Shown here piece by piece: positions 1 through 26,530 of a stretch of DNA of 64,000 nt (position 1 is the stretch's first letter; each line of letters opens with the position of its first letter). Made by a program: the position numbers and the translations under genes. The notes under the pieces were generated by a model. The model searched no databases, was not told the DNA's origin, and saw only the letters and a list, made by a program, of their open reading frames with translations. This stretch comes from an uncultured Candidatus Saccharibacteria bacterium (GTDB lineage Bacteria; Patescibacteriota; Saccharimonadia; Saccharimonadales; Saccharimonadaceae): positions 131 to 64,130 of the forward strand of contig CAUTMO010000003.1 in assembly GCA_963539815.1 (NCBI GenBank). The letters are read 5' to 3'.

Positions 1-838
1 ACGCGTACATTTCCAACTTATTAAATTGGTGAACTCGGAACAGGCCACGTGTGTGCTTTCCGTATGTTCCCGCCTCTTTTCGATAGCAAGGACTATATCC
101 AGCGTACAGCAATGGCAAATCTTTTTCGTCCAAAATTTCATCCGCGTGATAGCCGGTTAATGGCATTTCCGCCGTACCAATTAGCGTCAAATCTTCACCG
201 TCAACTACATATTCATTACTACCTTCACCCTTCGGAGTAAAACCTGCGCCTTCAGCTGTTCGCAAATTGACCATGTGCGGCACGGTCATAAATGTGAAGC
301 CCTGCTTTGTTACGTAATCCAAGGCAAATTGAGTGACGGCATTTTCCAGCAAAGCCAAATCACCCTTCAAATAATAAAACTTCGCACCAGCCACCTTAGC
401 GCCACGCTCAAAGTCTACCCAGCCGCGGCTTACGGCGTAATCCAAATGGTCTTTTGCGCCAGTTTTGCAATCGCCATAAACTTTTACTTCAACAGAATCT
501 TCTTCACCGCCCAGAGGCACGTCGTCAAAAGTGATATTCGGGACGTTTTTAAGAATTGCCGCAACTTTTTCCTCGGTCGATTTCAAATAGCTCTCACGCT
601 CTGCCAGCTCAACTTTCAATTGCTTGCCCTGATCAATTAACTCTTGGTCTGGTCGGCCGCCCTTCATCTTCGCTGAAATAACATTGCGTTGTTCGCGCAA
701 AGCTTCGACTTGCTTTTGCAAATCGCGGCGCTCATCGTCTAATTGCAACAATGCCGCAATATCAACTTTATAACCTTTATCGTTTGCCGACTTTTGCACC
801 AAATCGACATTTTCCCTGATGAACTTAATGTCTAACAT
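1..838 (-). CDS. serS: Seryl-tRNA synthetase, 5' part (3' end lies beyond the left window edge)
   Basis: Not in the ORF track because it runs off the edge. My minus-strand translation from the ATG at 838..836 reads MLDIKFIRENVDLVQKSANDKGYKV...LEALREQRN...YSPCYRKEAGTYGKHTRGLFRVHQFNKLEMYA. That covers the SerRS N-terminal coiled-coil arm plus the class II motif 2 region. Confidence 0.9.
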   Translation of the reverse strand, partial: MLDIKFIRENVDLVQKSANDKGYKVDIAALLQLDDERRDLQKQVEALREQRNVISAKMKGGRPDQELIDQGKQLKVELAERESYLKSTEEKVAAILKNVPNITFDDVPLGGEEDSVEVKVYGDCKTGAKDHLDYAVSRGWVDFERGAKVAGAKFYYLKGDLALLENAVTQFALDYVTKQGFTFMTVPHMVNLRTAEGAGFTPKGEGSNEYVVDGEDLTLIGTAEMPLTGYHADEILDEKDLPLLYAGYSPCYRKEAGTYGKHTRGLFRVHQFNKLEMYA

Positions 839-874
839 GTCTCAATTATATAACAACATAGACTATATATAAAT

Positions 875-905
875 AAACCCCGCCGGATTTAACAGACGGG
901 GTTTT
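875..905 (-). terminator. Rho-independent terminator after the collagen-like gene
   Basis: The minus strand reads AAAACCCCG-tctgttaaatcc-CGGGGTTT followed by ATTTAT. It lies between the stop at 927 and the serS promoter. Confidence 0.7.
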
Positions 906-926
906 AGATAAGTGTAAATGATTTAC

Positions 927-2153
927 TTACATAGCTGTGCCAGGTAACGTCGTTGGCCATGGAACGTTGTCGTCTGGAATATAAGATACACTAACGATCG
1001 GAGGGAGTGTTGGTGTTGGATTCTGAGCGCTAGCTGCTTCAGCTTGAATCTGTCCAGTAGTTTGAACTATCCAAGTCAAGTACGAATTACCGTATCGACC
1101 AGCGGAAGGACCTTGCATTTGATCGCCAGGGTGTAATCCAGACGGCAATGGAGCTCCGCCGCCGTTCCAGCTATACCCCCAGCCCGTAAGAGCTGCGTAC
1201 AGATAAACAGTATTATTAATTCGTCGAACCTTGACTACGCTGGCTTTCATGGATGTTGAGAGAATCTGAGGAACGCTCCTCCAGCCAGTGTCGCCGTACA
1301 CAACCTTCCAGCCTGTTTTATCACTACCACTAGCTTTAATCCAGCGAATGGCACCGTTTGTAGCAGCTGTATCGGTATAATACGTGCCAACACTAGCCTT
1401 AACATTACCCTCAGGCATACCAGTTCCGCGAATTTCGTACGTATCTTTCCACTCTACGTCACAGTCATTATCAGTTTTCTTACCGAGTACTTGATTTGTT
1501 TTGCCACCCGCAGGAAGATTCTTGCCTGTAAATTGTAAACCTAGGTTACTTGTACCATTTCCGGTAATAGTCAATCCGGTTGAGCAAGGCTGAGTGCTAT
1601 TAGTTACAGAAATTGTAGCATTTTGGCCAGCTGCCCCTGTAGCACCAGTCGCACCAGTAGCTCCCGTGGCTCCTCTAGCTCCTGTAGCACCATTAACTCC
1701 ATTGCGACCGTCTTTACCATCCTTGCCGTTTTGACCGTTTTGGCCATTAATGCCGTTTCGACCGTCCTTACCGTCCTTGCCATCTTTGCCATCTTGACCA
1801 TTCTGACCCTTAAGCAGATCAGAATATGCTATGACATTCTTCCATTCTGAGTCGCCAGTGTATCGCCACTGAATATACAAAGAGCCTTTCTGGACTTCAA
1901 TACTACGACCGTCTTTGCCGCGAAGCTCATCAAGAGATATGATTTTCTTCCAATCGCCGCCTGAATATTGATACTGAATCTCGCCTGAGTCCTGACGAAC
2001 AGATATAGAATCTATGTCAAAACCGCCACGTGGCATCATCTTACAAAAGATAAAGAACAGCAACAGTATTAATATTATAGTTATAGTGAACAGACTCAAG
2101 ACAAATGTCTTTGACGCCGGCTTCCTATTGTTTGTTTCTTCCATCAAAAACAA
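927..2153 (-). CDS. Membrane-anchored collagen-like (G-X-Y)21 repeat protein with a globular C-terminal domain
   Basis: N-terminal TM segment FVLSLFTITIILILLLFFIF. A duplicated module IQYQYSGGDWKKIISLDELRGKDG / IQWRYTGDSEWKNVIAYSDLLKGQNG. An uninterrupted run of 21 Gly-X-Y triplets (GQNGQDGKDGKDG...GATGATGATGATGAAGQN, DNA 1620..1808). A C-terminal domain of about 230 aa. Confidence 0.85.
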   Translation of the reverse strand: MFLMEETNNRKPASKTFVLSLFTITIILILLLFFIFCKMMPRGGFDIDSISVRQDSGEIQYQYSGGDWKKIISLDELRGKDGRSIEVQKGSLYIQWRYTGDSEWKNVIAYSDLLKGQNGQDGKDGKDGKDGRNGINGQNGQNGKDGKDGRNGVNGATGARGATGATGATGATGAAGQNATISVTNSTQPCSTGLTITGNGTSNLGLQFTGKNLPAGGKTNQVLGKKTDNDCDVEWKDTYEIRGTGMPEGNVKASVGTYYTDTAATNGAIRWIKASGSDKTGWKVVYGDTGWRSVPQILSTSMKASVVKVRRINNTVYLYAALTGWGYSWNGGGAPLPSGLHPGDQMQGPSAGRYGNSYLTWIVQTTGQIQAEAASAQNPTPTLPPIVSVSYIPDDNVPWPTTLPGTAM

Positions 2154-2249
2154 CCCCCAAATCGTTTTTTAACTACTTATGCTTTATCATTCTACACGCA
2201 TTTAATTTAAAAATCAAGCTATTTTTTACTCTTTATTCACAATTTTTTA

Positions 2250-3089
2250 TTAAACGTGAGAAATCACTCCCGCGCCAAGCATGACCAATAAAAGCAAACC
2301 CAGGACAAATCGATAAATTATAAACGGTCGGAAATTATTGCTCTGAATAAATTTTAATAACCACGACACAGCCAAATAACCGACACCAAATGAAATTACC
2401 GTGGCGATTATGGTTGGAGTCCAGCCAACGCCGCCAGAAATGTGCTTATATTTGGTGACAACTTCCAATAGTCCTGCTGCGACCAGCGCTGGAATGCCCA
2501 AGAAGAAACTCAATTTCGTAACCGACACGCGGTCAAATCCACGAAATAGACCGACTGAAATCGTTGCGCCAGAGCGACTAATGCCCGGAATGAGCGATAA
2601 GCACTGCCCCGCGCCAATCGCCAGCGTGTCTTTCCAGCTCGTCTCAGTTTCACCACGCTTGTTATTTACCGCACGATTGTCAGCCAGCCACATAACAACG
2701 CTCCAACCAATCAACCCGAACGCCACAAACCACAAACTGCGCAGAACCGTTTCAACTTCATGCTTAAATAACAGTCCGACAATCGCAATAGGAATTGAGC
2801 CGATAATAATTGCCCAACCATATTTATAATCAAACTTTCGACGCGCCCGTTTCCACCATAAACCGCGCCACCAAGCCTGTAAAATTCGCCAAATGTCGCT
2901 CCAGAAATAAATCACTGCCGCCAAAATTGCTCCGATCTGGATTATCGCCGTAAAAGCAACGACACTCGGATCGTCAATTCGCATACCCAACAACTTCTCA
3001 GCAATCGTCAAATGTCCAGTCGAAGAAATCGGTAAGAATTCCGTAATTCCCTCAATTACGCCGAGAATAATCGCTTGCCACCAAGTCAC
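2250..3089 (-). CDS. uppP: Undecaprenyl-diphosphate phosphatase (GTG start)
   Basis: N-terminus MTWWQAIILGVIEGITEFLPISSTGHL and GISRSGATI are the BacA/UppP signature motifs. The protein is polytopic. Confidence 0.93.
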   Translation of the reverse strand: MTWWQAIILGVIEGITEFLPISSTGHLTIAEKLLGMRIDDPSVVAFTAIIQIGAILAAVIYFWSDIWRILQAWWRGLWWKRARRKFDYKYGWAIIIGSIPIAIVGLLFKHEVETVLRSLWFVAFGLIGWSVVMWLADNRAVNNKRGETETSWKDTLAIGAGQCLSLIPGISRSGATISVGLFRGFDRVSVTKLSFFLGIPALVAAGLLEVVTKYKHISGGVGWTPTIIATVISFGVGYLAVSWLLKFIQSNNFRPFIIYRFVLGLLLLVMLGAGVISHV

Positions 3090-3154
3090 GCTTAAAAATT
3101 ACCTTTCATCCTTCAAGTGTAGCATTAGCGGTAAAATCATTCAAATGTGTGAGC

Positions 3155-4432
3155 CTAAGATTCGGTATTTTCTGCTTCAATCGAGTTTTGATAGAACAAA
3201 CCACTAACATTCACGCCCGCAGGAGCATAAATTTTCAAGCCAGTTATCGGCTTATAAAACTTCAGACAACCGTCAAAGAATATCGCGTTGCACTTCTCGG
3301 AAACAGACAGCACAATTTTATCGCCATCGCGGCGCACGTTAATTTCTGGTTTATTCGCCCTTGGCAAATCCACAAACTCCGCTTCCACCTTAAATTTGTC
3401 AGAATTTATTCGCGAAACATTCCCCACTGGCATATCAATAAAAATTGAATTAGCGTTTGTCGTATCTGGAATATCGATATTTACTTTCTTCGTGAGCTGC
3501 TGCGATTCACGTGCATATTCCAAACCAGCGTGCGCGCTAAATATTGCGGCGCTTGCCAAACTCATAAAAACAACGGATGCCGCTACGATCATTGTGATTA
3601 CAGACATTCGGTTGACCTTCCAGGCGAATATGCCACGCGTTACGATTGCGCCAAATATTACCGTCGCGATTCCGCCAATTGCCAAGGAAGTCCACACTCC
3701 CCACGCCCACATTTGCATACCCAAACCGCCGAGCATATCAATCATGGAAACGCCGAGCGCCCCGCCAACAATCAGTCCAAACAGTATCGCTAGCGTCGTA
3801 AGTAGCACCACAGCGCCGACAAAATATTGGAAAAATTTCGCAATTGGAGTTTTTCTGGCAGACACAGTTGAACTTCCATCAGCAGAAGTCTCCTTGAGCG
3901 CAGCCAAAGTTACTGGCTTTCCGCGCATTCGCAATTTGTCCGACGCGGTTTTTGCTGGCGGCATTGACACCCACATCGCGAGATAAACCAGCACCATCGC
4001 ACCAAATGTCACGAACGGCGAGATAATTGCAATCAGTCGCACCCACAACGGATTGATATTAAAGTACGCCGCTATTCCCGCACACACGCCGCCAATGACA
4101 GCCCCGTCCGTGTCGCGCATCAATTGCTTTTCTGGCTTCTCATTATCATCTGTCAATTCATCAGTTGAGTCCTCGCTATCATCCGAAAAATCGCGCGGTT
4201 CGCCCATTTGATTTTTAATCGCCAAAACGTCATCATCGCCAATAACGCCCTCTTTCATCACGCCACGCTCGGCCAAAATCTCAACCATTCGCGCCTCAAT
4301 TTCCTTCATCGCTTCCGCGTCGGCGTGCATATTTTTCTGAATCGAATTAAGGTATTTTTCTAGCGATTTCTTAGCGTCAATTTCCACACTAAATGCCGTT
4401 TTTGCCAGATGAATCCTGGTTATTTCCTTCAT
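3155..4432 (-). CDS. PspC-domain membrane protein with an N-terminal HAAS/DUF1700-like sensor-helper region
   Basis: The PspC motif is RDTDGAVIGGVCAGIAAYFNINPLWVRLIAIISPFVTFGAMVLVYLAMWVSMP. The N-terminus (KSLEKYLNSIQKNM...EIEARMVEILAERG...IKNQMGEPRDF) resembles the DUF1700/HAAS region found next to PadR genes. The start overlaps the PadR stop. Confidence 0.75.
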   Translation of the reverse strand: MKEITRIHLAKTAFSVEIDAKKSLEKYLNSIQKNMHADAEAMKEIEARMVEILAERGVMKEGVIGDDDVLAIKNQMGEPRDFSDDSEDSTDELTDDNEKPEKQLMRDTDGAVIGGVCAGIAAYFNINPLWVRLIAIISPFVTFGAMVLVYLAMWVSMPPAKTASDKLRMRGKPVTLAALKETSADGSSTVSARKTPIAKFFQYFVGAVVLLTTLAILFGLIVGGALGVSMIDMLGGLGMQMWAWGVWTSLAIGGIATVIFGAIVTRGIFAWKVNRMSVITMIVAASVVFMSLASAAIFSAHAGLEYARESQQLTKKVNIDIPDTTNANSIFIDMPVGNVSRINSDKFKVEAEFVDLPRANKPEINVRRDGDKIVLSVSEKCNAIFFDGCLKFYKPITGLKIYAPAGVNVSGLFYQNSIEAENTES

Positions 4433-16974: not shown

Positions 16975-18027
16975 GTGATTTCTAAGATTAAGCTATACAA
17001 TTTCCGGTCTTATCATCTGCACGAAGCGACTTTTAGCAATTCTGGTACGGTAATTGTTGGACCAAATGGCACCGGCAAGACGAATCTGCTCGAGGCGGTT
17101 TATGTGGCGCTGCGCGGCAGTAGTTTTCGTGGCAGCCTTAGCGATTGTATGACGCTGAACGCTCCGCAAACAATTGTTCACCTAGAGGGAGATTTCGGCG
17201 AGCGGCGTATTAAGCTTGATTCAATTTCCGGAAAAATCAACAAAGAATTCATCATCAATGACAATAAATCAAAGGTCTTAACCAGAAAAAACCGCTTGCC
17301 TGTCGTTTTGTTTGAGCCAAGCGAACTAAGATTAATTTCCTCTTCGCCGTCCCGACGACGCGACTTTCTGGATGGCTTAATTGCCCGACTTGACCCCAAA
17401 TACGACACGGATTTAAGAGCTTTCAATCGCACTCTTTTACAACGCAACGAACTCTTAAAATCCCACCAAGAAGACTCATCAATTTGGCGCGACAACCTGT
17501 TTGCTTGGGATATAAAATTTGTCCAATACGCAACCAACATTGCCCAAAAACGAGCCAAATTTCTCCAGATAAACGAGCCTCGCATAAAAAATTTATACGA
17601 ATCTTTGGCGGGAAAAGACACGCAATTATCAATCGAATATGGTGCTATTGTACCTCTGGAAAATTACGACCAAGCTCTACTCAATCGCTTAGGAAAATCC
17701 CGCGAATATGAAATGGCTACAGGCTTCACTTCTGCCGGTCCGCACCGTGAAGATTTCACAATTTTTCTCCATAATCAGCCCGCCATTAAAGTTGCTTCAC
17801 GCGGTGAAATGCGAACCATTATGCTGGCGTTCAAATTATTAGAGCTAGAACTTCAAACAGAAGTTAGCCAATCTCGACCGCTAATTCTACTGGACGACGT
17901 TTTCTCGGAACTAGACGCCACTCGCGAAAAACTTCTTCAGGAAACGATCCAAAATCATCAATTCATCGTCACCACGACAGATGCGCGCCACCAAAAAGAC
18001 GGCTGCTCAATAATTTCCACACAATAA
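16975..18027 (+). CDS. recF: DNA replication/repair protein RecF (GTG start)
   Basis: ISKIKLYNFRSYHLHEATF...IVGPNGTGKTNLLEAVYV (Walker A), plus a C-terminal LLLDDVFSELD. A TATAAT at 16963..16968 lies 6 nt upstream of the GTG. The 61 upstream codons of the tracked ORF overlap frr antisense. Confidence 0.88.
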   Translation: MISKIKLYNFRSYHLHEATFSNSGTVIVGPNGTGKTNLLEAVYVALRGSSFRGSLSDCMTLNAPQTIVHLEGDFGERRIKLDSISGKINKEFIINDNKSKVLTRKNRLPVVLFEPSELRLISSSPSRRRDFLDGLIARLDPKYDTDLRAFNRTLLQRNELLKSHQEDSSIWRDNLFAWDIKFVQYATNIAQKRAKFLQINEPRIKNLYESLAGKDTQLSIEYGAIVPLENYDQALLNRLGKSREYEMATGFTSAGPHREDFTIFLHNQPAIKVASRGEMRTIMLAFKLLELELQTEVSQSRPLILLDDVFSELDATREKLLQETIQNHQFIVTTTDARHQKDGCSIISTQ

Positions 18028-18058
18028 AAAATCGGCCACATTATTACAGCCGATTTCT
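18026..18058. terminator. Bidirectional terminator between convergent recF and tsf
   Basis: AAAAATCGGC-cacattattaca-GCCGATTTCTTT, with A/T runs on both sides. Confidence 0.7.
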
Positions 18059-18086
18059 TTCCTGGGGCAATTTTCTAAACTAGGAA

Positions 18087-18683
18087 TTATTCGCTGACGC
18101 CCAGCTCGATTCGCTTAAACTGACGAACCACGATGTTCTCACCTAATTTCGCAATTGCTTCCTTAATGTGCTGCTCAACAGTCTTAGAGTCGTCCAAAAT
18201 GTACGCCTGGCTCATAAGAACCTGTTCAGCAAAATGTTTCTTCAATTGACCTTCAACGATCTTTTCGCGCATTTCTTCAGGCTTGCTTGCCAAAGATTCG
18301 CTCGCCATAAGCTCAGCTTTAACGCGCTCCATTTCCTCTGCTGGAATGTCAGCTTCAGAAACATACTTTGGGCTCATCGCTGCAATTTGCATAGCAACTT
18401 CGTGCGCCAACGTCTTAAAGTCATCAAGTCGAGCCACAAAATCAGTTTCGCAGTTTACCTCAACGATAACGCCGATTCGACCAGAGTGAACATAACCTTC
18501 GATCAAACCTTCACGAGCTTCACGATCACCCTTCTTTTCAGCTTTCGTCAAGCCTTTTTTGCGCATAGCTTCCAAAGCTTTATCGAAATCGCCCTCAGCT
18601 TCAACCAAAGCTTTCTTAGCGTCAGTCAAGCCTACGCCGGTCAATTCGCGCAATTTTTTAATATCATCAACAGAAACGCCCAT
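18087..18683 (-). CDS. tsf: Elongation factor Ts (short form)
   Basis: IKKLRELTGVGLTDAKKALVEAEGDFDKALEAMRKKG is the UBA-like N-domain. The gene sits downstream of rpsB. Confidence 0.93.
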   Translation of the reverse strand: MGVSVDDIKKLRELTGVGLTDAKKALVEAEGDFDKALEAMRKKGLTKAEKKGDREAREGLIEGYVHSGRIGVIVEVNCETDFVARLDDFKTLAHEVAMQIAAMSPKYVSEADIPAEEMERVKAELMASESLASKPEEMREKIVEGQLKKHFAEQVLMSQAYILDDSKTVEQHIKEAIAKLGENIVVRQFKRIELGVSE

Positions 18684-18684
18684 C

Positions 18685-19413
18685 CTATTTCTCCTCTTTT
18701 TTAGCTGGTTTTTCTTCAGCCTTTACACTACCCGCACCTTCAGCAACAGCTGCGGTGAAGTAGTCTAATAGCAATTGAATGCCCTTAACAGCGTCGTCAT
18801 TACCTGGAATTACATAATCAATTCCTGTTGGGTTAACGTTGGTGTCAACAATTGCAAATACTGGCACGCCCAAAGTTTGAGCCTCGCGAACTGCATTTGC
18901 GTCGGTCAATGCGTCAACTACAACAACAGCGCCTGGCTTGCCCATCAAATCCTTGATACCGCCATATTTCATATTCAAGCTGTCGATTTCCTCTTGGAAA
19001 CGCTGCACCTCAAGCTTGTTATAACGCTTTTCCAAGTCGCCTGAAGCCATTCGCTTTTCAAGATTCTTCAGCTTCTTAATTTGCTGAGCAATAGTTGAAC
19101 CGTTAGTCAACATACCACCAATCCAGCGCTCAACTACGTATGGCTGGTTGATTTTTTCAGCTGCTTCACGAACAACGTCTTTGGCTTGTTTTTTGGTGCC
19201 AACAAACAGAACCTTACGGCCTGATGCGGCGATTTTTGTCAATTCCGGCAAAGCCTTATCCAAAGCTTCAACGGTCTTAGTCAAGTCAATAATGTGACTA
19301 TCCTGACGCTTACTGTGAATATATGGCGCCATCTTTGGGTGCCAGCGGCTGGTTTTGTGTCCAAAATGAACACCCGACTCCAGCAAAGCCTTAATGTCTA
19401 CCTTTACAGACAT
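18685..19413 (-). CDS. rpsB: 30S ribosomal protein S2
   Basis: LLESGVHFGHKTSRWHPKMAPYI... I chose the ATG at 19413 because AAGGAGAAAAGG precedes it. The tracked ORF starts 7 codons earlier. Confidence 0.93.
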   Translation of the reverse strand: MSVKVDIKALLESGVHFGHKTSRWHPKMAPYIHSKRQDSHIIDLTKTVEALDKALPELTKIAASGRKVLFVGTKKQAKDVVREAAEKINQPYVVERWIGGMLTNGSTIAQQIKKLKNLEKRMASGDLEKRYNKLEVQRFQEEIDSLNMKYGGIKDLMGKPGAVVVVDALTDANAVREAQTLGVPVFAIVDTNVNPTGIDYVIPGNDDAVKGIQLLLDYFTAAVAEGAGSVKAEEKPAKKEEK

Positions 19414-19499
19414 CCTTTTCTCCTTTTGCCTCATCCGCCCACGATTTGGAGTGTGAAGCGGATTGTGTCATTAAAATTAGTTACCTGGCAATTATACCA

Positions 19500-20243
19500 C
19501 TATTCTTCATCAGGAGCAACTACCTCTTGACGAGACGCGATGAACTTTTCCATCTCTTGATCAAGCTCAATTGCTTCCTTGCTCGAAGAAGAAATCTTCT
19601 GAATCTCATACCACTCTCCTCTTGGCTCTACAACTTGCATTTCAACAGATTGACCACTCTCTTCTGTCGAATCCTTGCGGCGCACCTCTGCGCGAACTAC
19701 ATCGCCACCTGCCCGAGCGAACTCAAAATAAGTAATCGAGCTATCATCCACAAAAGCACCATACGAACAATTCTCTCCCCACGCCAAATCCTTTGCAGTC
19801 ATATCCGGCGCCGGTTCATCAATTAGATTTGCCGACAACTTAAACAATAAGACTGATCCAGCCCTTACTCCGTCTTTCCTGAAGCTAGCATCCTTATAGA
19901 CATCAAATGCCACGGCTGAAGTGCTCACTTCCACTGGTATAATATTAGAAGAATCAACAATACTCTCATGAGGTTTAAATAGCTTCGCGCTAATAGGGCC
20001 TCTACCTAGCAATCTAGGATATAGTTCCAGATCAAGACTTACACTAAGCATACTACCAAGCCGTGATAACGAATCCTGATTAACCAGAGTATTTATATTA
20101 CTTTCTTCATAGCCATCAGGCTGATCCAGTATCTCGCTGATAGCCTGTATCTTTCTTTTTTCTTCACCGCGCCGAAACGCCTCATTCGCCAAGATGTCTA
20201 AATTATGATTATTCCAAAGTGTAGGTTGCCTTCCCTTGTCCAT
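19500..20243 (-). CDS. Hypothetical acidic cytoplasmic protein (orphan A)
   Basis: A 247-aa ORF with SD AAGGAG 9 nt upstream and its own promoter. I recognised no motif. Confidence 0.6.
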   Translation of the reverse strand: MDKGRQPTLWNNHNLDILANEAFRRGEEKRKIQAISEILDQPDGYEESNINTLVNQDSLSRLGSMLSVSLDLELYPRLLGRGPISAKLFKPHESIVDSSNIIPVEVSTSAVAFDVYKDASFRKDGVRAGSVLLFKLSANLIDEPAPDMTAKDLAWGENCSYGAFVDDSSITYFEFARAGGDVVRAEVRRKDSTEESGQSVEMQVVEPRGEWYEIQKISSSSKEAIELDQEMEKFIASRQEVVAPDEE

Positions 20244-20281
20244 ATTATATAACTCCTTAATTTTCCTAATTATCAGAACCA

Positions 20282-20310
20282 GTTATACTCTCTCTCTCTT
20301 GATTTGTCAA
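20282..20310 (-). promoter_or_regulatory. Promoter of orphan A: TTGACA-17 nt-TATAAC with (AG)6 inside the spacer
   Basis: The minus strand reads TTGACA AATCA(AG)6 TATAAC. The + strand (CT)6 is at 20288..20299. Confidence 0.6.
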
Positions 20311-20418
20311 GTATTTCATCATATTTTTGACAATTTGCAAACGACATGATTGCAATGTAGATTCGTGCTGCTGGTGATATTTGCATTACTCCGTTTTTTC
20401 TGTTAAAATACCAAGGTT

Positions 20419-20763
20419 ATGAAAAGCAGTATTCACCCACAGAACTATCGCCCTGTCGTATTTAGCGACGAACAAGCGGGCTTCGCGTTCTTGACTCAGT
20501 CAACAGCGCAAACAACCGAAACTATCAAATGGGAAGACGGCAACGAATATCCATTAGTTAAGGTTCATATTTCATCAGCTTCACACCCATTCTTTACTGG
20601 TGAAGAAAAGATTATCGACACCGAAGGTCGTGTTGATCGCTTTAAGGCTCGTCAAGCAGCTGCTGAAGCTCGCCGAGCAGCTTTGGCAAACAAAGCAAAG
20701 AAAGCCAACGCCAAAAAAGCAACTAAAACTGATTCTCCAAAATCAGACAAAAAGACTAAATAA
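20419..20763 (+). CDS. rpmE2: 50S ribosomal protein L31, type B (no CxxC) with a Lys/Ala-rich C-terminal tail
   Basis: [15 protein letters not shown]...[29 protein letters not shown] with no zinc-ribbon cysteines. A promoter-like TTGCAT-17-TAAAAT ends 9 nt before the ATG. Confidence 0.9.
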
Positions 20764-20788
20764 TCTAACAAATTAGTCCGACAATTCA

Positions 20789-20818
20789 AAAACCGCTCAA
20801 TCACTGGGCGGTTTTATT
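20789..20818 (+). terminator. rpmE2 terminator
   Basis: AAAACCGC-tcaatcactgg-GCGGTTTTATTTT. Confidence 0.75.
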
Positions 20819-20823
20819 TTACG

Positions 20824-21423
20824 CTAGTTCAATCTGACAACACTTATCTCGCGACATAATATTTCACGGTCTCCCCGCATCTTTGCAGCACATAAGCGGT
20901 GAGCGCCGTCACCTTGTAGAGCCAAAAATACTCCGCCATCAGAATCCACGACAATATCTACTTTGCGTATTGAAGGGCTAGTCTTCGGATCCATTTCTGT
21001 GTATTGTCTAATAATATCGCGGCTACTTTTTCCACCTTTCGATTCCGACACTCGCCCTTCTTGCCAATCTTTAATCATCGGTGCTGCCACAAATAATTCA
21101 ACTGGCAACGGAATATCAGATCCCGGAATCGCGCTCACTTCAGGCCACTTACCCTTATATATAGATATTTTTGTTTCACTGGCAATATTACCTTTAATTG
21201 ATTCATTCAAATCACGTAGTGGAACTGGCTTCGCTATTGGATGAGCGTCAATCTTAAATAAACTCTTCACAATCAAATCAACTCTCTGATCGTTTGCTGG
21301 GATATCCTCTGGAAGGTCTTTAATACATTGCGCCAGCTCAGATGACTTTCCAACGCCAGGAAGCGCCAACTTATCAGTATTTTCGTAAGCCAAATCACGC
21401 GAATCAATCTTGCATTCTCTCAT
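20824..21423 (-). CDS. Hypothetical protein with a possible ParB/Srx-like C-terminal domain
   Basis: FLALQGDGAHRLCAAKMRGDREI resembles the DGhHR..AA...G core of ParB N-terminal/sulfiredoxin-fold proteins. I take the start as the ATG at 21423 (MRECKID), 9 nt after a TATTAT -10. The tracked ORF begins at a TTG at 21441, inside the promoter. Confidence 0.45.
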   Translation of the reverse strand: MRECKIDSRDLAYENTDKLALPGVGKSSELAQCIKDLPEDIPANDQRVDLIVKSLFKIDAHPIAKPVPLRDLNESIKGNIASETKISIYKGKWPEVSAIPGSDIPLPVELFVAAPMIKDWQEGRVSESKGGKSSRDIIRQYTEMDPKTSPSIRKVDIVVDSDGGVFLALQGDGAHRLCAAKMRGDREILCREISVVRLN

Positions 21424-21432
21424 TATCACCAT

Positions 21433-21474
21433 ATAATACAATACTAGAAAGCATTTGTCAATGTATGATATAAT
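21433..21474. promoter_or_regulatory. Back-to-back divergent promoters (ParB-like gene and prfA)
   Basis: Minus strand: TTGACA (21461..21456), 17 nt, TATTAT (21438..21433). Plus strand: extended -10 TGaTATAAT (21466..21474), 9 nt before the prfA ATG. Confidence 0.6.
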
Positions 21475-21483
21475 TTTATAGAT

Positions 21484-22554
21484 ATGGCGAAGATTTCTTT
21501 AGATATGGATTCTCTGAAAAATGAACGAGCTGATTTAAGCAATTTTTTAGCGCAACCTGACGCTTACAGCTCACCAGATTTTACGGTAAAAAACAAACGA
21601 TTTTCAGAATTAGAGACGCTTATCTCCAAAGGCGAAGAGCGAGAAAACCTGGAAAAAAACTTGGTAGAGGCCAAAAAATTAGCTAACGAAGGCGGTGAAT
21701 TGGCCGCTCTGGCGAAACTTGAAATTACTGAAACCGAAGCTCGATTGACCGAATTAGAAGAAGAATTATTCATCCTTCTCACCCCAAAAGACTCCAACGA
21801 TGAGAAGAATATCATCATGGAAATCCGAGCTGGCGCTGGTGGCGACGAAGCATCCCTGTTTGCGGCGGAACTGTACCGCATGTATCTACGTTGGTGTGAA
21901 TCTAACGGCTATAAAGTGGAATTAATTAGCGAATCAGCCAATGATTCTGGCGGCTATAAAGAAGTTATTTTTATGATCAAGGGCGATGCGCCATACTCTA
22001 AATTGAAATTCGAAGGTGGCGTACACCGAGTTCAGCGAGTTCCAGTCACTGAAAGCCAAGGTCGCGTCCATACTTCAACTGTAACGGTGGCAGTTTTGCC
22101 AGAAGCAGAAGAGGCTGACATTGAGATAAACCCGAACGATTTGCGAGTTGACATTTACCGTTCCAGCGGACACGGTGGACAGAGTGTGAACACCACAGAC
22201 TCGGCGGTGCGAATCACCCACTTGCCGACTGGAATGATAGTTACAAACCAGGATGAAAAGTCGCAAATTAAAAACCGCGAAAAAGCCATGAGCGTGCTTC
22301 GTTCACGATTGTTACAGATGAAAATTGACGAGGAAAACGCCAAATTAAGCGCCGAGCGACGCTCGTTGGTTGGAACTGGCGACCGCTCGGAAAAAATCCG
22401 AACATATAACTTCCCGCAAGACCGAATCACCGACCACCGCATTCACTACAGCCGCAGCAATATCCCCGCTGCAATGAACGGGGATATCGACGATTTGATT
22501 GAAAATCTACAGAGATATGAGCGCGAGTTGAAAGCTCAGAATGCTAGTAACTAG
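21484..22554 (+). CDS. prfA: Peptide chain release factor 1
   Basis: [17 protein letters not shown] is the RF1-type tripeptide region, and [23 protein letters not shown] is the GGQ motif. Confidence 0.95.
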
Positions 22555-23135
22555 TACGGCTTACGCGGCTCAGCAGACTCCAATAGTTTTGCTAGCTTAT
22601 GTATCTCTTCCACGCCAACAGGCTGACGATTCAGCCCCATTTGTTGCTCTAATTTATCATTCTCTATTTCATCGTTACACCTATCAACCATATGCATTAT
22701 GATGATAACTTCGGAGCGCAGTACTCTCTTTAACTCTCTCGACCGCTTAGCAATATTGTCATCGTACCTCAAAACCTGATCATCTTCTATATAATAATCA
22801 TGCGTCTCTTTACTTCCCTCATCCAACTCCGTAATTGATATGGATCGTTCTTTATCTCCATTATCAAGCAGAGCGGATTCCACACTGACCAATATATAAG
22901 ATCCGTCTTTTTGAGGAATTTCTAATAAAACTTGCGATTCTACCCGATCCATCGATTCAGTATGATCGTAAGTTTTCGCATCTCCCGCGAATCTAAGCAA
23001 TGTCAGCTGAACCAGATCATCAAATTCCTTTGCCGCCCGCAACTTTTCTTCGGTCGTCAGTTCAAGATTAAATCCTTCTGCAAACTCCATTTGTTTTGCG
23101 GCTTCACTACTATGCGTATTATTTGGCAATTCCAT
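22551..23135 (-). CDS. Hypothetical acidic cytoplasmic protein (orphan B)
   Basis: A 194-aa ORF, convergent with and overlapping the prfA stop by 4 nt. Its 5' region is paralogous to that of orphan A. I recognised no motif. Confidence 0.55.
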
Positions 23136-23171
23136 TATATATTCATCTCTTTCGCTAATGATATGAAGCCT

Positions 23172-23202
23172 ATAATACTCTCTCTCTCTCTTGATTTATC
23201 AA
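23172..23202 (-). promoter_or_regulatory. Promoter of orphan B: TTGATA-19 nt-TATTAT with (AG)7 inside the spacer
   Basis: The minus strand reads TTGATA AATCA(AG)7 TATTAT. The + strand (CT)7 is at 23178..23191. Confidence 0.55.
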
Positions 23203-23279
23203 TACTTTTTACCATTTTTCTCAGTTTTTGCAAGCGTTTTACTTTTTACATTCCATAGATATATGTTATAATTAGCCAC

Positions 23280-24104
23280 ATGATTATCTCTGAATGGCTA
23301 AAAATTGCCACAAAATCCTTAAAAATAGCAAACATCCCGTCCGCCAGATTAGACGCCGAATTGATATTAGCCAACACTTTACGAAAAAACCGCACTTACC
23401 TACACGCCCATCTGGACGAAGAAATTGACCCCAGAAGATTTGACATCGCAAATGCCAGATTAGATCTGAGATTAGACCGCGTACCAATAGCCTACATTCT
23501 GGGCTATAAAGAATTTTACGGCCGCAAATTCACCGTATCTCCTTCCGTTTTAATTCCCCGCCCTGAATCCGAAGATCTAATTTCATTGTTCTTAGAACTG
23601 ACCGCCAGTGAAATTGTCGAAAAAGTTTTAATTGACGTTGGTACAGGGTCTGGCTGTCTGGGAATTACTGCCAAATTAGAGAGAAACAACTTGTCGGTGA
23701 TCTTATCCGATATTAGCAAGCCAGCCTTAAACATTGCAGAAAAAAATGCGAATGCCTTAAATGTGGACGTCCATATTCAACAGCAATCATTGCTTAATGG
23801 TCAACTCAAACCAGTCGACTACATTTTTGCCAATTTGCCTTACGTTGACAAAAATTGGGACGTATCTCCAGAACTTCAATACGAACCAGAAATTGCGCTT
23901 TTCGCCGAAGACGAAGGGCTGAAATTGATATTGCAATTGATCTCACAAGCACCACGATGCCTCACCTCAGAAGGTTTATTGTTTATCGAGGCGGATCCTC
24001 AGCAGCACAATAGAATAATTGACGAAGCCGTGAAAAATGGTTTTGTAAAAGAGAGAGTTCTCAATTACATCCTAGTCCTGCGTTTCACTGGCGCCCAAGA
24101 TTAA
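23280..24104 (+). CDS. prmC: Release-factor glutamine N5-methyltransferase (HemK/PrmC)
   Basis: An SAM motif IDVGTGSGCLGI and a catalytic NPPY variant FANLPYV. The genomic neighbourhood includes prfA. Confidence 0.85.
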   Translation: MIISEWLKIATKSLKIANIPSARLDAELILANTLRKNRTYLHAHLDEEIDPRRFDIANARLDLRLDRVPIAYILGYKEFYGRKFTVSPSVLIPRPESEDLISLFLELTASEIVEKVLIDVGTGSGCLGITAKLERNNLSVILSDISKPALNIAEKNANALNVDVHIQQQSLLNGQLKPVDYIFANLPYVDKNWDVSPELQYEPEIALFAEDEGLKLILQLISQAPRCLTSEGLLFIEADPQQHNRIIDEAVKNGFVKERVLNYILVLRFTGAQD

Positions 24105-24865
24105 ATTACTACCGAATTCAAGAACACTAACATCACTAAGATAATTACGATCGTAAGAATCACCGGAGCTGATATGTCTGAAAATCGAATGGCTTTGTGC
24201 TTGTTGTAAGATTGGTAAGCTTTACTGGCTACAAGCGAGAATAGCAATAAGATTATTGTAACCTGTGAAACGCCGCCAAATAATGACTTTCCGTAACTGT
24301 AAGTCCAGTAATATGACAACCAACCCAGCTCAGCAAAGACGAGTCCCCAGATTGCCGAAAGTAAAACCGTTTGTTCTTCGTCATAACTGTGTAGGAAATG
24401 ACGCGCAGAACTATAGCCAATCAAGAACATCAGAATAACAACTACAGAAACTGGCCACTCGTACGACACCACCATCAGAGCAGTTACACCGACGAAAATA
24501 GCAATCAGCGACTGCATAGCAACCTGCCAGCGCTTAGACATCGGCTTAATCACAACTAACCAAATTGCATATAATATCGCCAATGCTACGCGGAAATAAA
24601 ACACTGACGTAGGTAGATACATCAGACCAACAACACCAATTCCGACCGTTAAGTCAACCAAGTTAGCCTGAATATTTGCCCACCAAAAACGCGGACGAAC
24701 AGCAATTATGCGCCATTTACTCAGCACGACAAGTGCTAATGCTGGAAACGGGGTCTGAAATGCTTGAGCAATAACAAGCAATGCAACCGCCAAGCCAATA
24801 TTTAAGACATAATAAACTAACTCGCTCCAAAACGTTCTTCGTTTAACAGTTTTCAGTAACTCCAT
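24101..24865 (-). CDS. Polytopic membrane protein of unknown function
   Basis: A 254-aa ORF with about 7 hydrophobic helices. I recognised no motif. Confidence 0.6.
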   Translation of the reverse strand: MELLKTVKRRTFWSELVYYVLNIGLAVALLVIAQAFQTPFPALALVVLSKWRIIAVRPRFWWANIQANLVDLTVGIGVVGLMYLPTSVFYFRVALAILYAIWLVVIKPMSKRWQVAMQSLIAIFVGVTALMVVSYEWPVSVVVILMFLIGYSSARHFLHSYDEEQTVLLSAIWGLVFAELGWLSYYWTYSYGKSLFGGVSQVTIILLLFSLVASKAYQSYNKHKAIRFSDISAPVILTIVIILVMLVFLNSVVI

Positions 24866-24886
24866 AACTTACTCTATTATACCAAA

Positions 24887-26530
24887 TTATGAGCCAGTTC
24901 CCACAACAACGATGAATTGTGCGTCAACATTCAAATTATACTTCGAGGAATCTGATAAAACCGAGCCGTACAACTCCTTAAATTTATCTTTCGTGGCGGT
25001 TTTTTCTTTACCAGCTGACAATTGATAAACTTGAGTCTTCCCTATTTTCTCACCACCTGGAGCATTGCCGACATGAACAACTTTCATTCCTAATTCTGTC
25101 AATTTGTCCGCCTCTTTCTGCGCTGCGCCAGCCACGCCGGAACCGTTCAAGACAGCAACTGTGGCTTTTTCCTTAGATAACGGCGTTGCGTAAATCTCAG
25201 ACTTTATGTAAGCACGAATGTCGTCATAATCATATAATCCCGCAGCCGGCTGGACTATACTTGCGCCACCCGCCGTGCCAGTAGTCATAAGTACATTGTT
25301 TTCCTCTACAAAACTCAATCTGTGAATATCAGATTCTTTTATCTCTGAGCCAAGGTTCATAATTGTGCGAATTTCTTTCGTGTCAATGTTTGTGCGCAAG
25401 TTTTTGCCCATAGCATCCATCAGAGACGTCACCTTGCCAAAGTCAGTCAACGTTCCCGTGGAAGTAGCTTTGTTTTTCAGAGCCATAAGTACCAATTGCT
25501 GGTTTTTCTCTCGGTCAAAGTTGGATTGTTCCAATCCGTAAGTTGGCGCCACCAAACCACGCGCCCGAGAGAACCACATCGCCTTTTCGCCGTCCATTTC
25601 GTGCTTGCCGTTAGTTAATTGCATATAGTGACCTGTTGGGCATCGTTCACGACGTTGCTGATAGTTCAATTCCTTCGCTCGACACATCCAATCCATACTT
25701 GGGTCAAGGATTCCCCGCGGATCACGACTCTGTACGTCAACAGTAACTCCGCCGACCGCATTGACAGCATCACGAATCACCGCAGTATTAATATGCGCCA
25801 CGTATTGAATATCCATACCGAATATATCGCCGATGAATTTCTTAGTTTTATCCATTCGTTCGGCTTCTGCCTGCGCACTATCGCCATTATTCACGCAGCC
25901 AAAATATTCATTGATTTTACCAGCGTAGCCAGAATTACACGCCATACCAAATTTTACATACAAGTCACGCGGAATGCTAAACATATACGCATCCTTCTTT
26001 GTCTGATTGACGCTAAGAATCATCATCGAGTCGGTCAATGTCGCACCTGGATGGTCCGGATCGTCATCTGTTGTACCTAAAATCAGCACATTACTTCGAC
26101 CATAAGCATCCTCTTTCAGTTTCTGCTGCGAAAATAGTCCTAAGATTCCGCCATTATGGAACACCGAGTTCATCGTCTGCCATAATTTTAATAGCAGCCA
26201 GCCCGCCACAATTGCAATAATAATTCCGATAATCGCAAGAATAATCCTGGTAATTAACTTTTTCTTACGCTTCTGTTTGCGCTCCTGCCGATGAGAAGGC
26301 TTGGTGTTTTCATCAATTGCCGCCAACGATTCGCTAATATTCTGCTTTAATTTATTAGCAGAAGTTGGTTGCTGAATATTCCTTGTCGCATTATTCGACA
26401 CTTGTGGACTATCTTCGTTACTACGAGGATGCCCGAGCGTAGTCGTTTTTTTGCTAGTAATTTCCCCCAACGAAGTTCGCTGTGGTCGCTTGGCGACAAA
26501 TCCGTCCATCGACTGTTTGCGTGGTTTCAT
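24887..26530 (-). CDS. LytR-CpsA-Psr (LCP) family cell-wall glycopolymer ligase with a LytR_C domain
   Basis: TM anchor, LILGTTDDD...TLTDSMMILSVN...SIPRDLYV (LCP core), and a C-terminal VAVLNGSGVAGAAQKEADKL (LytR_C). Confidence 0.88.
   Translation of the reverse strand: MKPRKQSMDGFVAKRPQRTSLGEITSKKTTTLGHPRSNEDSPQVSNNATRNIQQPTSANKLKQNISESLAAIDENTKPSHRQERKQKRKKKLITRIILAIIGIIIAIVAGWLLLKLWQTMNSVFHNGGILGLFSQQKLKEDAYGRSNVLILGTTDDDPDHPGATLTDSMMILSVNQTKKDAYMFSIPRDLYVKFGMACNSGYAGKINEYFGCVNNGDSAQAEAERMDKTKKFIGDIFGMDIQYVAHINTAVIRDAVNAVGGVTVDVQSRDPRGILDPSMDWMCRAKELNYQQRRERCPTGHYMQLTNGKHEMDGEKAMWFSRARGLVAPTYGLEQSNFDREKNQQLVLMALKNKATSTGTLTDFGKVTSLMDAMGKNLRTNIDTKEIRTIMNLGSEIKESDIHRLSFVEENNVLMTTGTAGGASIVQPAAGLYDYDDIRAYIKSEIYATPLSKEKATVAVLNGSGVAGAAQKEADKLTELGMKVVHVGNAPGGEKIGKTQVYQLSAGKEKTATKDKFKELYGSVLSDSSKYNLNVDAQFIVVVGTGS

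Follow-up and report, generated by a model that had tools for sequence, protein, structure and literature searches.

Can the strength of a bacterial promoter be set by the number of dinucleotide repeats inside its own spacer, and has a bacterium with a tiny genome made use of this at more than one locus? The question is raised by a 64-kb stretch of DNA (the window, meaning the whole stretch that was analysed) from an oral, Nanosynbacter-like Saccharibacterium (TM7). Two minus-strand genes in it, here called A and B, lie behind closely similar predicted promoters whose -35 and -10 hexamers are separated mostly by an AG repeat. This AG spacer probably works as a stochastic on/off switch. The favoured reading, in which strand slippage changes the strength of the promoter as at known contingency loci, is given a probability of roughly 0.7 on the sequence comparisons set out below.

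On the minus strand, copy A reads TTGACA-AATCA(AG)6-TATAAC with a 17-nt spacer and copy B reads TTGATA-AATCA(AG)7-TATTAT with a 19-nt spacer, exactly as a preliminary description of this DNA had written them. The two upstream regions have a 23-nt core in common, with one mismatch. When 20244..20345 is aligned globally with 23136..23245, identity is 66% over about 105 nt (z = 6.7 against shuffled sequences), and so the similarity first seen by eye from the start codon through the promoter is real, its figure of roughly 70% being slightly generous but fair. By segment, identity is highest in the -35 to -10 core (84%), while the sequence upstream of it reaches 57% (z = 2.7) and the leader, as far as the start codon, 62% (z = 3.0). 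No other dinucleotide repeat in the 64 kb has five units or more, and no homopolymer in the window is longer than 7 nt. Moreover, two dinucleotide repeats of at least six units were seen against 0.035 expected per window, and two matches to AATCA(AG)6 with up to three mismatches against 0.16 expected, which bears out the earlier opinion that a twin occurrence is unlikely to be accidental.

Comparison of tract length across strains had been named beforehand as a test that could refute switching. Its outcome favours switching: lengths vary widely, in whole AG units, between fixed flanks. Tallied were 85 loci for B and 62 for A, taken from other genomes and metagenomes (NCBI, ENA, JGI and Logan). 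Pure B tracts had four units in eight loci, five in 20, six in 16, seven in 24, eight in three and nine in one, the remaining 13 being interrupted; pure A tracts had four units in nine loci, five in nine, six in 18, seven in 15, eight in seven, nine in two and 11 in one, with a single interrupted tract of 9 nt. Within these A and B loci neither the pad AATCA nor the -10 ever changes, and the -35 takes just two forms, TTGACA and TTGATA.

Much of this variation is found between close relatives. Tract states differ in 68% of comparisons at no more than 50 single-nucleotide polymorphisms (SNPs) per 6.9 kb, and the figure is similar at far greater divergence. In twenty contigs with an identical B protein (P0045 or P0042) the B tract has n = 4, 5, 7 or 8, in sets from which n = 6 and n = 9 are missing by construction, and the A tract has n = 4-7. 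Among ten contigs that share the A-family protein P0174 without any change, the A tract has 5, 7, 7, 8, 8, 8, 8, 9, 9 and 11 units. Contigs L034 and L035 differ by one SNP in 6.9 kb, and by five versus eight units at B and four versus seven at A. Furthermore, in a 7-kb alignment of 20 strains no indel site other than the A and B tracts has more than two length alleles. Even the closest relatives of the window differ from it (L001 with an interrupted B tract and A n = 5; L022 with B n = 5 and A n = 6), and so do cultured strains, with B n = 5 in TM7-076, B n = 6 in TM7-053 and the B promoter deleted in TM7-008. The last case, in Nanosynbacter sp. TM7-008 (NZ_CP157587; L009 4990..5010), is a deletion of about 115 nt that joins TTGCAAAAAC to AAAACAAATGG and takes away the -35, the tract, the -10, the Shine-Dalgarno (SD) motif and the first 15 codons of B; it probably arose between short GCAAAA(A)C repeats.

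Promoters in which the repeat is broken or lacking behave differently. The 13 interrupted B tracts fall into three sequence kinds, and each is exactly 12 nt long and so gives a 17-nt spacer; a fourth kind, AGAGAAAGAGAG, has this length too, and the interruptions AGAGATAGAGAG, AGAGAAAGAGAG, AAAAAGAGAGAG and AGAAAGAGAGAG arose independently. The version AGAGATAGAGAG is 12 nt in 11 loci, five of them in contigs with a pure A tract of seven to nine units; these contigs come from the set with an identical A protein and A tracts of n = 5-11, in which the interrupted B tract is 12 nt in 5/5. Between A and B lies a third minus-strand gene, C, whose predicted promoter has a non-repeat spacer that exists in eight sequence versions and is 17 nt long in 63/63 related loci, and the predicted spacers of prmC (16 nt in 27/27 loci) and rpmE (17 nt in 51/52) are as strict. 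Spacing in this lineage is thus under constraint, pure AG spacers excepted. Hypermutability is confined to the uninterrupted repeat, interrupted tracts and non-repeat spacers being fixed in length, and the locking of interrupted B alleles and of the sister promoter at 17 bp offers indirect support for transcription that would depend on n. The slot-C promoter resembles the AG-spacer promoters in its extended -35 (TTGACAAAT; TTGACA(AAT)), its TATTAT -10 and its orientation, and also in driving a small gene of unknown function antisense among housekeeping genes. It is unlike them in its fixed, non-repeat 17-nt spacer, and as such it appears to act as their natural constitutive counterpart.

The preliminary description had treated the pair of cassettes as private to the window, but the promoter module is found widely in Saccharibacteria. 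An exact-match scan of JGI and ENA metagenome contigs with the pattern TTGAYAAATCA(AG)4 returned 113 stretches, and the core TTGACAAATCA(AG)n, with probable chance matches removed, occurs in 29 sequence contexts, although the search pattern itself accounts for part of the conservation of AATCA across contexts. In 23/29 contexts TA comes directly after the tract, with T at hexamer position 6 (1.7 bits, a position that the pattern left free). The start codon lies 28-103 nt downstream of the hexamer and has an SD-like motif before it in 20/23 contexts, and tract length varies inside every context sampled more than once. The six TTGACA contexts without a following TA, and the TTGATA hits with n = 4 in environmental contigs, look like chance matches and not like the module. 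The initial placing of the tract between promoter hexamers thus gains from four observations, namely the TAnnnT that abuts it in 23 contexts, the SD-like motif farther downstream in 20 of these, the interrupted B alleles at 17 nt and the sister promoter at 17 nt.

The complete module, TTGACAAATCA(AG)nTAnnnT, stands ahead of many unrelated small genes, most of them without annotation, at set positions among rpsB, rpmE, prfA and prmC, and its exact core is retained in lineages whose prfA is only 60-66% identical to that of the window. Its cargo comprises the A and B families and at least a dozen mutually unrelated small proteins with no Pfam domain, and includes two lipoproteins; one LPxTG-like surface protein lies on a contig (L108) for which no link to Saccharibacteria was found. 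Across 989 kb of related DNA, 143 dinucleotide repeats of at least five units belong to the module and only 10 lie outside it, six of these 10 being pad variants of the module itself (the pad variants seen are AATCC, AATTA and AATCACG). Carriage of the module by phages was rejected, as it was not found in IMG/VR viral contigs.

Two contigs taken up by the scan, L120 (28% GC) and L130 (30% GC), were rejected as carriers of the Saccharibacteria module and belong to other organisms. On L120 (JGI Ga0256837_1011032, positions 1..3618), from a seemingly unrelated organism, there are three tandem paralogous gene pairs, each composed of a small Tyr-rich secreted protein and a protein of 213-330 amino acids (aa). 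At least two of the small genes stand behind consensus promoters with AG spacers, TTGACAAATCA(AG)5TATAAT and TTGACAAATTA(AG)7TATAAT, which seem to be an independent instance of the same trick. On L130 (1493..1601), and likewise on L161, a 28-nt minisatellite in 3.9 copies contains TTGATAAATCA(AG)n and is probably unrelated to the promoter module.

How such a module could switch a gene follows from general properties of promoters and repeats. Promoters of the sigma-70 type are efficient only with spacers of about 16-18 bp, and repeats become less stable by orders of magnitude once mismatch repair is lost, as in mycoplasmas. The module would be a sigma-70 type promoter composed of an A-rich stretch, TTGACA, AATCA, (AG)n and TAnnnT, with the AG repeat as most of its spacer. 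Slippage in replication would gain or lose whole AG units, left unrepaired without MutS and MutL, giving spacers of 5 + 2n bp, that is 13, 15, 17, 19, 21 and 23 bp for n = 4 to 9. Six units would provide the optimal 17 bp and an active promoter, while at other lengths the hexamers would be misaligned and transcription weak or abolished, so that the downstream gene would be switched stochastically and heritably. For the window, A (n = 6, 17 bp) is expected to have an active length with an imperfect -10, and B (n = 7, 19 bp, with the weakened TTGATA as -35) is expected to be weak or off. We infer that the hexamers form a working promoter, that expression depends on n and that the switching is clonal and adaptive. 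Six or seven units had been considered short for high-frequency slippage; tracts of this length are indeed short, but the worry is eased because MutS and MutL were not found in Saccharibacteria (Jaffe et al., 2021; PMC8406219), which would explain instability in tracts of this size. It is also conceivable, at somewhat less than even odds, that the module is an ancient and portable AG switch, kept as a pure repeat by selection for its mutability and seated in constant places between essential translation genes, with a rotating, unrelated and fast-evolving cargo; in these ultra-small epibionts it would form a bet-hedging phasome for dealings with bacterial hosts or phages.

Several points weigh against switching. 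The -10 of A, TATAAC, lacks the highly conserved final T, and a scan for consensus promoters makes no call there; one strain has TATAAT at this place, and A-family loci from other lineages have TATAGT. An alternative promoter, TTGCAA-N16-TAAAAA, could lie upstream, which would place the tract in the leader. The sets with an identical B protein lose n = 6 and n = 9 because gene callers extend the open reading frame (ORF) at those lengths, and L034 and L035 may represent related samples that were assembled separately. Proteins A and B are also unlike the surface or restriction-modification proteins usual in phase variation. Finally, n = 6 makes up only 22% (B) and 30% (A) of pure tracts and is absent from the ten contigs with the 218-aa A allele (P0174, n = 5-11), so that under a strict 17-bp rule most sampled strains would be off. 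Such a minority fits a contingency locus, but it also fits a tract whose length matters little.

That last possibility leads to the alternative that fares best, although it is judged unlikely: the tract would be a mutational hot spot without a switching role, drifting because it is tolerated and with little effect on expression, the -35 or the genes themselves being dispensable. The broad length distribution, the lack of n = 6 alongside the 218-aa A allele and the reported absence of MutS and MutL are all as drift would have them, and so are a cargo that is accessory and replaced between lineages and a B promoter that one cultured strain has simply deleted. Drift alone does not readily explain why pure tracts persist at the same position before unrelated genes in lineages with 60-66% prfA identity, when about 1 Mb of related DNA is otherwise all but free of such repeats. 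Nor does it explain why interrupted B tracts are all frozen at the length of a 17-bp spacer and non-repeat promoters hold a strict 16-17 bp, which shows that spacing is constrained.

Less probable still is an operator or DNA-structure element, in which TTGACAAATCA(AG)n would bind a conserved regulator or act as a polypurine/polypyrimidine tract and changes in length would work chiefly through altered binding, an arrangement that may coexist with an effect on spacing. This would suit the invariant pad AATCA within the A and B loci, the further semi-conserved upstream element TTGCAAAA...TAAAAAGTA and the short inverted repeat TTGA..TCAA that can be read by eye in TTGACAAATCAA. However, part of the AATCA conservation comes from the search and pad variants exist, no candidate regulator was identified, and a binding site is not expected to tolerate 8 to 22 nt of repeat.

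A translational frameshift switch is very improbable. Here the start codon would be an upstream ATG (MVKSIDKS...; MVKSIDKSRERE), the tract would be coding (RERE...) and B would be in frame at n = 6 or 9. The Nanosynbacter B frame is in fact open from this ATG through (AG)6 or (AG)9, giving annotated products of 220 and 222 aa, and the interrupted tracts are in frame too. Among B homologues (P0002-P0119), gene callers extend B through the promoter to 215-228 aa beside versions of 194-195 aa. This happens at n = 6 or 9, or at n = 5 or 8 when the -35 reads ATGACA or ATGATA, and the called extensions mirror the tract: MVKSIDKS-RERE-YY corresponds to (AG)6 and RERERE to (AG)9, MTNQEREYY to (AG)5 and M[IT]NQEREREYY to (AG)8, while RDRE, KKRE and KRRE mark interrupted tracts. 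On the other side, stop codons can be read directly in all three frames between the A tract and the A ATG, and an in-frame stop separates tract and start codon in 19/23 contexts, distant B-family loci included, which excludes a general translational frameshift switch. Moreover, the upstream ATG has no SD motif, whereas the conserved MELPNN start has an SD-like AAAGAG or AAAGGA, and in some species the ATG is replaced by GTG or shifted by a 1-nt deletion. Frameshifting through an N-terminal extension was therefore rejected, the 220-aa and 222-aa products being gene-caller extensions. A sequencing or assembly artefact has a negligible chance. Dinucleotide repeats can mis-assemble and some contigs (L031, L125, L131) end at or near the tract, but the differences are always whole AG units and recur across many assemblers and sources (NCBI, ENA, JGI, Logan), and within these contigs no variation is seen in interrupted tracts, in homopolymers or in other promoters. 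The three contigs cut off there give at most a hint of heterogeneity within a sample.

Coordinates of the genes and of the predicted promoter elements are collected in the table.

Table. Genes A, B and C of the window and the predicted elements of their promoters and leaders (TSS, transcription start site)
Feature	Position	Strand	Remarks
Gene A	19500..20243	-	247 aa, function unknown
A leader (predicted)	20244..20281	-	SD AAGGAG 20253..20258; inferred TSS near 20275
A -10 hexamer TATAAC	20282..20287	-	imperfect, final T missing
A (AG)6 tract	20288..20299	-	n = 4-11 in 61 pure tracts elsewhere; window spacer 17 nt
A spacer pad AATCA	20300..20304	-	
A -35 hexamer TTGACA	20305..20310	-	
A upstream element TTGCAA	20335..20340	-	
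Gene C	20824..21423	-	199 aa, function unknown; slot between prfA and rpmE
Slot-C promoter	21433..21461	-	TTGACA-17 nt-TATTAT, non-repeat spacer
Gene B	22551..23135	-	194 aa; no Pfam/NCBIfam hit, no PDB match; fast-evolving centre
B leader (predicted)	23136..23171	-	SD-like AAAGAG 23147..23152; inferred TSS near 23165
B -10 hexamer TATTAT	23172..23177	-	same in 78/78 related loci; window spacer 19 nt
B (AG)7 tract, (CT)7 on +	23178..23191	-	hypervariable; n = 4-9 in 72 pure tracts elsewhere
B spacer pad AATCA	23192..23196	-	invariant in all related loci
B -35 hexamer TTGATA	23197..23202	-	TTGACA in 62/78 related loci
B A-rich stretch GTAAAAAGTA	23203..23212	-	directly upstream of -35
B upstream element TTGCAA(AA)	23228..23233	-	semi-conserved

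Further elements surround the predicted promoters. Judged from general knowledge of UP elements, GTAAAAAGTA resembles a proximal subsite, and the TTGCAA(AA) upstream of B may be a second -35 or a factor-binding site. Many module contexts, though not all, have an element of the form yTTGCAAAA-N(about 9)-AAAANTGNTAAAAAGTA directly 5' of the -35, which may represent a UP element together with a factor site or else a tandem promoter of the type TTGCAA-N16-TAAAAA. Downstream, a three-codon upstream ORF (ATG AAT ATA TAA, 23136..23149, reading ATGAATATATAATG) overlaps the start codon of B, and it is kept in related loci, as is the entire leader. A riboswitch or structured leader RNA was rejected: Rfam covariance models run over 18000..25000 gave no relevant match, even at E ≤ 1, and folds of the A and B leaders had z-scores between -1.1 and +0.5 against shuffled sequence, with no significant RNA structure.

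The proteins themselves have few recognisable features. Neither A nor B matched Pfam or NCBIfam, and the two show no similarity to each other. AlphaFold2 models were of modest quality (predicted local distance difference test scores of 72 for A and 56 for B), Foldseek comparison of the models with the PDB gave no match at E ≤ 0.001, and profile searches against PDB sequences likewise returned no hit with E < 0.1. Both proteins are acidic, and no signal peptide was seen by eye (no predictor was run). The preliminary description had called the genes orphans, which they are not, as homologues form 320 (B) and 211 (A) clusters at 90% identity, nearly all from human oral metagenomes, with 'TM7 phylum sp. 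oral taxon 352' as one named match. A scan of GTDB species representatives returned 32 loci, every one labelled Saccharibacteria or Nanosynbacter. Taken with the Saccharibacteria loci, these clusters make A and B lineage-restricted conserved hypothetical proteins. Within Nanosynbacter, nucleotide identity is 93-99% along the backbone and 63-80% in the centre of gene B, which indicates a fast-evolving gene behind an ordinarily conserved promoter; the idea of a promoter more conserved than its gene was dropped, as the identity profile places the upstream region merely at the 93-99% backbone level.

Housekeeping genes occupy the 18-25 kb region, with tsf and rpsB read from the minus strand and rpmE, prfA and prmC from the plus strand; among them stand A, C and B, three minus-strand genes without Pfam or NCBIfam matches. 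Synteny mapping (window 18087..24865; loci L033-L052 and L053-L175) gives a shared backbone of tsf, rpsB, [slot A], rpmE, [slot C], prfA, [slot B] and prmC, in which the slots hold cargo that differs by lineage and is inserted antisense or upstream. Slot A holds a 247-aa, 219-aa or 328-aa allele depending on the strain, and the 328-aa allele lacks the AG module and has a weak PRTase-CE match. Slot B holds the B family in Nanosynbacter and, elsewhere, unrelated genes of 131-191 aa behind the same AG module, which in other lineages also occupies slot C, for example ahead of a 321-aa gene. Gene A lies 65 nt upstream of rpsB-tsf and is co-directional with it. Gene B and prfA, on the minus and plus strands respectively, converge so closely that their 3' ends overlap by 4 nt (22551..22554), which leaves no room for a terminator; B transcripts would consequently run antisense into prfA, and a switch at B might also modulate release factor 1.

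Other observations concern the neighbourhood of prmC and the start of the window. The predicted prmC promoter (23245..23282) reads TTTACA-16-TGTTATAAT and ends 9 nt ahead of the prmC ATG, a position which suggests that the prmC mRNA is leaderless or nearly so; the layout of the slot-C gene is similar. At the convergent ends of prmC and a 254-aa ORF, a 12-nt unit, TTAATCTTGGGC (24093..24104), is duplicated in tandem in 10/20 close strains (L033-L052, near position 3023), and this duplication toggles the two ORF ends between overlapping and separated. Farther away, the plus strand at 1636..1802 repeats with periods of 9, 27 and 54 nt (Tandem Repeats Finder scores up to 142) and may encode a repetitive protein segment.

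The proposed switch has well-known relatives. The hifA/hifB fimbrial promoter of Haemophilus influenzae carries a (TA)n tract between its -35 and -10, and the AG module is like it in having a dinucleotide spacer that changes in 2-bp steps, with one optimal length, neighbouring lengths weak or off, and a location in a divergent intergenic region. It differs in that the repeat is AG instead of TA, the tracts are shorter (4-11 units), many loci are involved instead of one, and the tract is not common to two overlapping divergent promoters; the host also lacks mismatch repair, and the cargo is made up of unknown, cytoplasmic-looking proteins instead of fimbriae. Nearest in organisation is the vlp system of Mycoplasma hyorhinis, where a poly(A) run lies in the promoter spacer and the ON state has 17 bp. 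Both comprise several genes behind copies of one conserved promoter with a variable spacer repeat, in a minimal genome without mismatch repair, and with 17 bp as the active length. In vlp, however, the repeat is a homopolymer and the cargo consists of paralogous surface lipoproteins in one cluster, whereas here an AG dinucleotide precedes unrelated proteins, mostly without signal peptides on inspection, whose genes are lodged singly between essential translation genes, and the module is kept across deeply diverged lineages. Poly-G or poly-C tracts in or beside the promoter spacers of porA, opc and fetA in Neisseria meningitidis, and of fim2/fim3 in Bordetella pertussis, likewise let slippage alter hexamer spacing, with graded or on/off transcription. 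Those are homopolymers that change in 1-bp steps and give intermediate levels of outer-membrane proteins, and their promoters are individual, unlike the copies of a reused module described here.

Full-text searches found no report linking Saccharibacteria or the Candidate Phyla Radiation to phase variation by simple sequence repeats; one paper (PMC11032452) mentions phase variation in its Discussion as a general comparison and does not describe it in TM7x itself. The kind of mechanism is known, but as far as could be found no phase-variation system has yet been described from the Candidate Phyla Radiation, and this one would be the first.

In the human mouth Saccharibacteria are abundant as epibionts; their genomes are tiny and encode few regulators, and how they interact with their hosts is poorly understood. 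One practical consequence concerns annotation, as repeat number drives calls of 194 aa to 228 aa for the same B protein. The idea of an AG-spacer switch is testable in strains that have already been cultured, and the phylum is now genetically manipulable, with natural competence as a means (PMC10633639). If it is true, the switched genes would be candidates for a part in host range or in the interplay with phages or the immune system, and the module would show how a cell that has next to no regulatory repertoire can diversify its population.

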